A stretch of 64,000 nt of DNA from NCBI GenBank assembly GCA_026026165.1, contig JAPEUD010000032.1, positions 1-64,000 of the forward strand. Direction: 5' to 3'. Source of the stretch: Sarea resinae (lineage: Eukaryota). The notes under the pieces are model-generated. The model was given only the letters and a program-made list of their open reading frames with translations. It was not told where the DNA came from and did not search any database. A program made the translations under genes and the position numbers. Below, piece after piece: positions 32,289-32,660 of the stretch; the stretch's first letter is position 1, and each line of letters begins with the position of its first letter.

Positions 32289-32660
32289 TCAAGCTTTGCG
32301 CTCGTACTCGCCGTAATTCTTGGTCCAGATGATCTCCGTGGCTGGGTCGACCTGTTCGTCTGTCTCGCGCTTTTCATATTCGCCGTAGTTTTTGGTCCAG
32401 ATGATTTCCGTGGCTGGATCAACTTGTTCGTCTGTTTCGCGCTTTTCATATTCGCCGTAATTCTTTGTCCAGATTATCTCAGTGGCTGGGTCGACCTGCT
32501 CGTCTGTCTCGCGCTTCTCGTACTCGCCATAGTTTTTGGTCCAGATGATTTCCGTGGCAGGGTCGACAACGACTTCGTCCTCGGGATTTGCGGCCGGCAA
32601 AGGAGAAGCAGTGACCAAGGTGCTGGCTGCAAGCAGCGCTACGAGAGCTTTAGGTATCAT
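32289..32660 (-). CDS. RiPP precursor peptide (secreted Kex2-processed repeat protein), 123 aa
   Basis: Signal peptide MIPKALVALLAASTLVTASPL, then four copies of VDPATEIIWTKNYGEYE separated by KR-ETDEQ; surrounded by DUF3328 genes. Confidence 0.95.
   Translation of the reverse strand: MIPKALVALLAASTLVTASPLPAANPEDEVVVDPATEIIWTKNYGEYEKRETDEQVDPATEIIWTKNYGEYEKRETDEQVDPATEIIWTKNYGEYEKRETDEQVDPATEIIWTKNYGEYERKA
32301..32567 (-). repeat. 72-bp coding tandem repeat, about 4 copies, in the precursor
   Basis: 24-codon period with only synonymous differences over the shared 17 codons. Confidence 0.95.

Follow-up and report, generated by a model that had tools for sequence, protein, structure and literature searches.

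A candidate dikaritin-type repeat precursor with a conserved Trp/Tyr core within a block of oxidase-type genes in Sarea resinae

Ustiloxins, which inhibit microtubule assembly (PMC7329392), are the founding example of the dikaritin class of fungal ribosomal peptides (PMC12048977, PMC7329392). The known dikaritins are mostly mycotoxins, and few fungal ribosomal peptides have been characterized (PMC12048977). As set out in Umemura 2020 (PMC7329392), ustiloxin-type precursors are defined by an endoplasmic reticulum (ER) signal and by repeats parted by Kex2 sites, and a position beside genes of the DUF3328 family is the context that defines them. In that survey, 22% of 7878 Kex2-processed repeat proteins (KEPs) are encoded near DUF3328 genes, which are on average 3.09 genes away. 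Here, we analyzed a 64,000-nucleotide (nt) stretch of DNA from Sarea resinae (assembly GCA_026026165.1, contig JAPEUD010000032.1, positions 1 to 64,000; hereafter the window). In this window, a minus-strand gene at 32289..32660 encodes a four-repeat protein that is probably the Kex2-processed precursor of an uncharacterized modified peptide of the dikaritin (ustiloxin/asperipin) type.

The asperipin-2a system of Aspergillus flavus comprises the precursor AprA with the core FYYTGY, the cyclase AprY, the reductase AprR, and the transporter AprT. In the phomopsin cluster, several diverged DUF3328 paralogues (PhomYa-e) stand around one repeat precursor, PhomA, with the core YVIP(ID), and these paralogues are said, in work by Sogahata et al. 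from 2021, to divide the labor between cyclization and desaturation. The ustiloxin cluster contains the precursor UstA (YAIG/YVIG), the double-HxxHC DUF3328 oxidases UstYa and UstYb, the tyrosinase UstQ, and other genes for tailoring. A tyrosinase is described as indispensable for the cyclization of both ustiloxin and phomopsin, and the phomopsin cluster has five DUF3328 genes alongside its precursor gene (PMC7329392). DUF3328 proteins are recognized by a double HxxHC motif (PMC12048977, PMC12435403), and their copper chemistry was established only in 2025 (PMC12435403). The DUF3328 protein CctR is described there as a membrane-anchored homodimer with a binuclear copper site made from HxxHC(x)nHxxHC, which needs O2 and electrons, and the same paper cites work in which AprY, the cyclase of asperipin, depended on copper and O2 (PMC12435403).

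The precursor gene of the window has no intron, and its reading frame is open from the ATG to the stop codon. As the initial annotation had described, the 123-residue protein starts with a hydrophobic N-terminus, which leads into a short acidic stretch and then into four identical copies of VDPATEIIWTKNYGEYE. The residues ETDEQ directly precede copies 2-4. Lys-Arg (KR) sites follow at residues 49, 73, and 97, and copy 4 terminates in ERKA without a KR. Past residue 19, the remaining 104 residues include 28 Asp and Glu, 12 Lys and Arg, four Trp, and eight Tyr, with no Cys. Residues 1-19 are a probable ER signal peptide: their highest Kyte-Doolittle mean over 12 residues is 2.44, the same N-terminal hydrophobic pattern recurs in the seven homologues aligned with the precursor, and M1 and P20 are invariant across this eight-member family alignment. 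The features of the precursor locus are as follows.

32289..32660, minus strand: precursor gene, 123 amino acids plus stop, without intron
32604..32660, minus strand: putative ER signal peptide, residues 1-19, called from hydrophobicity and the homologue pattern
32511..32582, minus strand: repeat unit 1, residues 27-50, core Trp codon starting at 32543, ending in KR
32439..32510, minus strand: repeat unit 2, residues 51-74, ETDEQVDPATEIIWTKNYGEYEKR, Trp codon at 32471
32367..32438, minus strand: repeat unit 3, residues 75-98, Trp codon at 32399
32292..32366, minus strand: repeat unit 4, residues 99-123, Trp codon at 32327, with the ERKA end
32795..32805, no strand assigned: TA-repeat element, inferred to be TATA-like, 135-145 nt upstream of the precursor ATG

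Tandem Repeats Finder reported a period of 72 with 3.6 copies and 84% nucleotide matches for the precursor DNA, the sole long-period repeat within the window. Over the 51 nt common to the four copies, 13 columns vary, and every one of the 13 is a synonymous change at a third codon position; a random spread over the codon positions would give this outcome with a probability of (1/3)^13, about 6e-7. Likewise, copies 2-4 vary over 66 nt in 14 columns, all of them (14/14) synonymous third positions. The repeats of an overlapping plus-strand open reading frame (ORF) at 32232..32666 are non-identical, whereas the minus-strand copies are identical in protein, which makes the minus strand the coding strand. 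Thus, the precursor gene is real and under purifying selection, which acts on the whole unit including the acidic flank. The exact protein is absent from a collection of 15 billion proteins, so that gene calling there would seem to have missed it, and no RNA run is listed for the window DNA. Both points would suit a chance ORF that arose from tandemly repeated DNA, or a pseudogene in decay. However, that explanation is contradicted by the exclusively synonymous differences between the copies and by 24 profile matches in other fungi with the same core and a signal-like start, and the frame is open throughout; we regard it as extremely improbable. The ESM Atlas contains the precursor protein letter for letter. 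A search of the Atlas with this protein scored 0.89 at best, and its structure matches are meaningless, the model being disordered (predicted local distance difference test, pLDDT, 0.52).

The strongest evidence for the precursor interpretation is a set of surrounding oxidase genes, which the initial annotation had not seen and which bears out the role it assigned to the ORF. Within about 16 kb (25.2-40.9 kb), every recognized gene besides the precursor is of one oxidase type. On both sides of the precursor stand seven UstYa/DUF3328 genes (PF11807), within 7.5 kb upstream and 8.3 kb downstream, together with one further gene, termed F, whose protein has the HxxHC motifs and no Pfam family. The nearest oxidase genes are gene E, 742 nt from the precursor start codon, and gene D, 1.4 kb past its stop. 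The Pfam scans, with a cut-off of 25 bits, covered all stop-to-stop ORFs of at least 100 amino acids outside 20-46 kb (149 queries) and, inside 20-46 kb, selected ORFs of at least 90 amino acids plus two exons of gene E (26 and 25 queries). Each of the seven PF11807 genes has at least one ORF piece or exon past the cut-off.

25207..26197, plus strand: UstYa gene A, 268 amino acids, 3 introns, HQIHC and HVDHC; PF11807 E-value 6.2e-24 (last exon)
26564..27646, plus strand: UstYa gene B, 286 amino acids, 3 introns, HQLHC and a variant H-x4-HC; PF11807 E-values 3.6e-15 and 3.9e-10
27796..28774, minus strand: UstYa gene C, 275 amino acids, 3 introns, HELHC and HLAHC; PF11807 E-values 1.3e-20 and 1.7e-06
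29675..30863, plus strand: UstYa gene D, adjoining the precursor 3' end, 331 amino acids from the first ATG, 3 introns, HQLHC and HIDHC; PF11807 E-values 1.6e-12 and 4.5e-19
33403..34513, plus strand: UstYa gene E, divergent from the precursor, 253 amino acids, 5 introns, HSLHC and HVDHC; PF11807 E-value 6.7e-14 (last exon)
36643..37353, minus strand: gene F, 236 amino acids, without intron, one transmembrane (TM)-like segment, HLAHC and HTEHC 30 residues apart
38082..38998, plus strand: UstYa gene G, 258 amino acids, 2 introns, HQMHC and HIDHC; PF11807 E-values 6.5e-12 (second ORF piece) and 0.0033
39917..40930, plus strand: UstYa gene H, 255 amino acids, 3 introns, HQLHC and HLPHC; PF11807 E-value 1.6e-15

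The models of genes A, B, C, D, E, G, and H give open frames of 253-331 amino acids, and in each of these seven UstYa models an intron lies directly after the first HxxHC-L motif. The PF11807 match of gene E appeared only once its last exon was read in frame, and the model of gene E includes a 60-nt intron that is in frame. The models of genes B and C come from reading the DNA. All eight models have a single 19-residue N-terminal TM-like window with a Kyte-Doolittle mean of 1.9-2.8. Two HxxHC motifs, 28-37 residues apart, are present in seven of the eight oxidase-type genes (six of the seven UstYa genes and gene F). Pairwise identity among the eight proteins is only 16-30%, which marks them as old paralogues and not as recent copies. 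Gene B has a public counterpart, an NCBI protein of 303 amino acids whose name gives a Sarea resinae metagenome-assembled genome as its source. Its identity to exon 1 of gene B is 100%, and it matches at 100% over three pieces, with a splice pattern unlike the present model; the public annotation leaves out the codons for the second His-Cys motif and retains 63 nt that are probably an intron, whereas our model restores DHC...LRQKLMC. The TA-repeat lies in the 742-nt spacer between the precursor and the divergent gene E.

Among the scanned ORFs of the window, no domains of a nonribosomal peptide synthetase, tyrosinase, methyltransferase, P450, or transcription factor were found, and the 25.2-40.9 kb block encodes no peptidase. 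Nor is there another candidate substrate gene among these ORFs, and no second ORF with a WTKNYG-type motif occurs in the 64 kb.

In its layout the locus comes closest to the asperipin-2a cluster, since no tyrosinase was found. Both have a repeat precursor, secreted in asperipin-2a and putatively so in the window, whose Tyr-rich core comes with Kex2 sites, both have DUF3328 proteins as the sole oxidative enzymes, and both are without a tyrosinase and without a peptidase gene, the latter as given for asperipin-2a in PMC12048977. The window differs in having eight HxxHC oxidase-type genes in place of one, and no reductase gene was found in the scanned ORFs. Its core is the longer one, with Trp, Lys, Asn, and acidic residues in it, and its KR lies 11 residues before the conserved block, whereas that of asperipin-2a is close to the core. 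The phomopsin cluster shares with the window the arrangement of several diverged DUF3328 paralogues around one repeat precursor, but its tyrosinase and methyltransferase have no counterpart in the scanned ORFs, and Y-x-I, the motif of the Tyr-Ile ether ring, is absent from the window core. With the ustiloxin cluster the window has in common the signal peptide, here putative, the KR-parted repeats, and the double-HxxHC DUF3328 proteins; the core is another one, there are four repeats instead of many, and the scanned ORFs showed no gene for a tyrosinase, a P450, a methyltransferase, or a transcription factor. As the initial annotation had stated, the core is unlike YAIG, YVIPID, FYYTGY, and GLKLAF, none of which occurs within the 123 residues. 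Of the features used for KEP mining (PMC7329392), the precursor has the KR-parted repeats and, judged by hydrophobicity, an ER signal-like start.

A likeness in mechanism alone links the locus to the plant burpitides, in which BURP-domain copper cyclases act on Tyr/Trp cores; in both, copper enzymes with four planar His would cross-link aromatic side chains of ribosomal peptides, a comparison made in PMC12435403; the BURP enzymes are an unrelated family from another kingdom, and no BURP domain is present at the window locus. The kind of system is a known one, a Kex2-processed repeat precursor with DUF3328 oxidases. The window core itself was not found in 8.1 million PMC papers and 0.36 million preprints, although a catalogue listing may exist in subscription papers, and it was not found in the supplements of Umemura 2020 and of a paper on Trichoderma peptides made on ribosomes and modified after translation, whose long files are possibly incomplete. 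A paper on acalitide was considered and proved to be unrelated to the window peptide. What sets the locus apart are the near-invariant Trp/Tyr core, the eight HxxHC oxidase-type genes in one place, and a co-located family, that of gene F, which Pfam does not recognize.

A word-indexed search returned 7 relatives of the precursor. A profile built from eight sequences was searched against 1.84 billion protein representatives and gave 24 matches at E <= 1e-3, with 10 at E <= 1e-10. The named relatives belong to Aspergillus fijiensis, A. melleus, Botrytis byssoidea (a pair of genes, with neighboring tags), Sclerotinia trifoliorum, Trichoderma harzianum, Fusarium nematophilum, Xylaria arbuscula, Gnomoniopsis sp., and Madurella mycetomatis. 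Core residues were counted over 50 instances in 30 proteins (the window protein, 24 search matches, and 5 cluster members; two long matches with a very short matched stretch, P0023 and P0025, are omitted). The consensus is an 11-residue block, [ILV][PSI]WTKNYG[ED]Y[DE], with the following composition (n=50; Trp is position 0).

Position -2: I 36, L 13, V 1
Position -1: P 25, S 13, I 12
Position 0: W 50/50
Position +1: T 49/50
Position +2: K 47/50
Position +3: N 50/50
Position +4: Y 48/50 (first Tyr)
Position +5: G 46/50
Position +6: E 42, D 8
Position +7: Y 49/50 (second Tyr)
Position +8: D 31, E 16

The core is thus conserved across ascomycetes of several orders. The flanks of the block are variable, and conservation collapses outside it; in 22 of the 50 instances the protein terminates within 5 residues of the second Tyr. 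The initial annotation had placed the core roughly at IIWTKNY(GEY). The conserved block supports this placement and extends the minimal core by 2-3 residues at its C-terminal side, to about IIWTKNYGEYE. With respect to the Tyr through which a dikaritin would form its aryl ether macrocycle, there are two per core, kept in 48 and 49 of the 50 instances. The Tyr-ether or Trp-Tyr cross-links that the initial annotation proposed would be formed on these residues. The core is nearly unchanged in Botrytis and Sclerotinia, which are plant pathogens, in Trichoderma, known from biocontrol, and in Aspergilli, and the product therefore probably has a conserved target.

Two subtypes can be told apart among the relatives. 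The window precursor belongs to a subtype DPAT-x-IIWTKNYG-x-YEKR that is common to A. fijiensis, Sclerotinia, and Botrytis, and in which the nearest upstream KR lies 11 residues before the conserved block. In the other, a Cys stands at -4 from the Trp (31 of 50 instances), mostly with KR before it; such relatives, of the form KR-C-x-IPWTKNYGEYD, occur in Trichoderma, Xylaria, Fusarium, and others. The relatives with KR before the Cys would release C-x-IPWTKNYGEYD(E) directly. Most relatives also have a second Cys in the leader, 12-15 residues further upstream, as in C...KRC (P0005-P0008, P0011, P0013-P0015). The paired Cys residues suggest a leader-core disulfide or a Cys-based modification in these relatives, absent from the window subtype.

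Separately, a metagenome scan with the precursor alignment gave 54 pattern matches, one of which (L001) passed tblastn and was rejected as unrelated. L001 is a bacterial 560-amino-acid repeat protein (9290-10972, plus strand) that contains DLIWTKNYGG and whose repeats carry W-[ST]-[KR]-T/N-[YL]-G-G; its likeness to the fungal core is coincidental.

Conservation of this kind also raises the question of whether the peptide is modified at all. We considered a linear peptide released by Kex2, whether unmodified, disulfide-bonded, or trimmed, that acts as a signal, a pheromone-like factor, or an effector, with the oxidases acting elsewhere or standing nearby by coincidence. An 11-residue block that is near-invariant across several orders is what a ligand with a conserved receptor would show. 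Many relatives have one or two copies of the core, and the frequent Cys at -4 points the same way. An Atlas cluster of alpha-mating-factor precursors came up at rank 3 by feature likeness with a score of 0.85, to be read as a lead only. In addition, 78% of KEPs have no DUF3328 gene nearby, and the linear state is regarded as ancestral among KEPs (PMC7329392). Against the linear peptide, the window precursor does not contain Trp-Cys ... Gly-Gln ... Cys-Trp, the motif of ascomycete alpha-pheromones. Pheromone-type KEPs have DUF3328 neighbors in only 3 of 443 cases (PMC7329392). The window precursor is flanked on both sides by seven such genes, or eight when gene F is counted, at distances as short as 742 nt and 1.4 kb, and the scanned ORFs of the 64 kb offer these oxidases no other substrate-type gene. 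Furthermore, two other fungi have an orthologue of gene F next to their precursor gene or not far from it. On balance, we consider the linear peptide unlikely and keep to the dikaritin-type precursor as the probable reading.

Gene F deserves separate attention. Its best UstYa match in Pfam has an E-value of 0.31 and 11.3 bits against the cut-off of 25, and hhalign of gene F against the gene B family gave a probability of 0.5%. The nearest Atlas clusters are uncharacterized Ascomycota proteins (0.96), and a UstYa-bearing cluster follows at rank 18 (0.84). The AlphaFold model is weak (mean pLDDT 60.7) and places both HxxHC motifs near the starts of two consecutive helices. The exact protein is absent from the 15-billion protein collection. 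Orthologues with 50-71% identity were found in Talaromyces pinophilus, Aspergillus aculeatinus, Sclerotinia nivalis, Stromatinia cepivora, and Botrytis byssoidea; A. uvarum, A. fijiensis, and A. brunneoviolaceus belong to the 90% cluster of the A. aculeatinus orthologue. Judged by its motif architecture, the gene F family may be an unrecognized relative of the DUF3328 copper enzymes. Its alignment also has an invariant D-C-G-x-S ... C ... C block upstream of the two HxxHC motifs.

The neighborhood of gene F in other genomes was read from locus tags and accession order. In Botrytis byssoidea, the two precursors EAE97_008773 and EAE97_008774 and the F orthologue EAE97_008776 all give 945,629 nt as the length of their contig. 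For Aspergillus fijiensis, the corresponding length is 763,473 nt, given both for the precursor RAK80249.1 and for the F orthologue RAK80242.1, which have six genes between them. Including the window, an F-type gene is thus found near a WTKNYG precursor in three fungi of different orders. A gene B exon search gave 9 matches among 40 candidates, none of them tagged beside a known precursor, a result that is uninformative for synteny.

These data also allow a variant of the dikaritin-type reading, in which the gene F family is the dedicated enzyme and most of the seven UstYa genes are accessory or inactive on the peptide. It draws on the spread of F orthologues over Talaromyces, relatives of Aspergillus section Nigri, Sclerotinia, Stromatinia, and Botrytis, with the DPAT-x-IIWTKNYG precursor subtype present in Botrytis, Sclerotinia, and A. 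fijiensis as well, and on the co-location in other genomes, which could be shown for F and for no other gene of the cluster. In addition, a homologue of gene B and a homologue of gene F each list a contig of 17,914 nt. However, among the UstYa genes only B was searched in the same way as F, so that the missing synteny is no evidence of absence, and gene F has no demonstrated catalytic family, as its Pfam, hhalign, and model scores show. We give this variant very little weight and return to the reading in which the neighbors of both types may act on the precursor.

In that reading, the putative signal peptide would carry the precursor into the ER. In the lumen of the ER or Golgi, the four cores centered on IIWTKNYGEYE would then be oxidized by some or all of the eight neighbors, putative single-pass membrane HxxHC...HxxHC proteins to which a copper- and O2-dependent role may be ascribed by analogy with CctR. 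The reaction would be a side-chain macrocyclization through Tyr, perhaps also through Trp, together with hydroxylation or desaturation. Kex2 would cut after the three KR sites, a carboxypeptidase would remove the KR, and peptidases from outside the block would trim the 11-residue acidic flank ETDEQVDPATE, so that four copies of one small modified peptide would be secreted. The calculated [M+H]+ of the unmodified species is 1415.684 for the 11-mer core, 1060.473 for the 8-mer, and 2630.178 for the 22-mer Kex2 fragment.

Several points weigh against this reading. The near-invariant core is out of the ordinary in a class described as having highly diverse cores (PMC7329392), and it would fit a conserved signalling peptide as well. 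The position of the KR 11 residues upstream of the block means that proteases not encoded there would be needed. The signal-peptide call rests on hydrophobicity and the homologue pattern. The gene models are provisional, having been built by hand from DNA reading and a splice-site search anchored on coordinates, and the list of RNA runs for the window is empty, as noted above. Two introns in the model of gene C have weak splice signals, and gene B has H-x4-HC where the canonical second HxxHC is expected. Gene F looks like a DUF3328 protein in its motif architecture only, with no homology to UstYa detected. Finally, the co-location in other fungi concerns gene F and precursors of the window subtype, and it was taken from tags and accession order.

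A wider reading would join these observations, and as a whole we hold it to be doubtful. It takes the WTKNYG peptides for a widespread and unnoticed modified family, whose near-invariant 11-residue core would be turned into a polycyclic scaffold by eight binuclear-copper oxidases, an unusually large set, with at least one cross-link through the invariant Trp; the gene F family would form another lineage of HxxHC copper enzymes, one that Pfam does not see and that serves the WTKNYG peptide in particular. To our knowledge, a Trp cross-link is of a type that has not been described in fungal dikaritins. As a test case the locus is compact enough to be cloned in a single piece, with one precursor of four identical cores and eight candidate copper oxidases in 16 kb, with no other enzyme types to confuse the assignment. 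It would help to assign reactions to individual DUF3328 paralogues.

Outside the block, one further gene borders on the oxidases directly.

41794..43360, plus strand: major facilitator superfamily (MFS) transporter gene in two ORF pieces, MFS_1 E-value 3.6e-10, directly following gene H

The MFS gene may serve the cluster as its exporter, or it may be a sugar-type permease with no link to it; its position is what suggests membership. The flanks consist of ordinary genes. On one side these are EMP70, Sas10/Utp3, an aldo-keto reductase, a flavin monooxygenase-like gene, a peroxiredoxin, and an amidase, and on the other TFIIIC, a bleomycin-hydrolase-type peptidase, a cation efflux protein, a thiolase, and ubiquitin-conjugating enzymes. 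The flavin monooxygenase-like gene (10776-12500, plus strand) and a gene with a SigF-type NTF2-like domain (13426-14203, minus strand) lie about 12-14 kb upstream of the oxidase block, from which housekeeping genes separate them; both are probably unrelated to the cluster. The window also contains a long CT dinucleotide run at 1-131 and a purine-rich block of AG/TAG microsatellites at 53503-54067.

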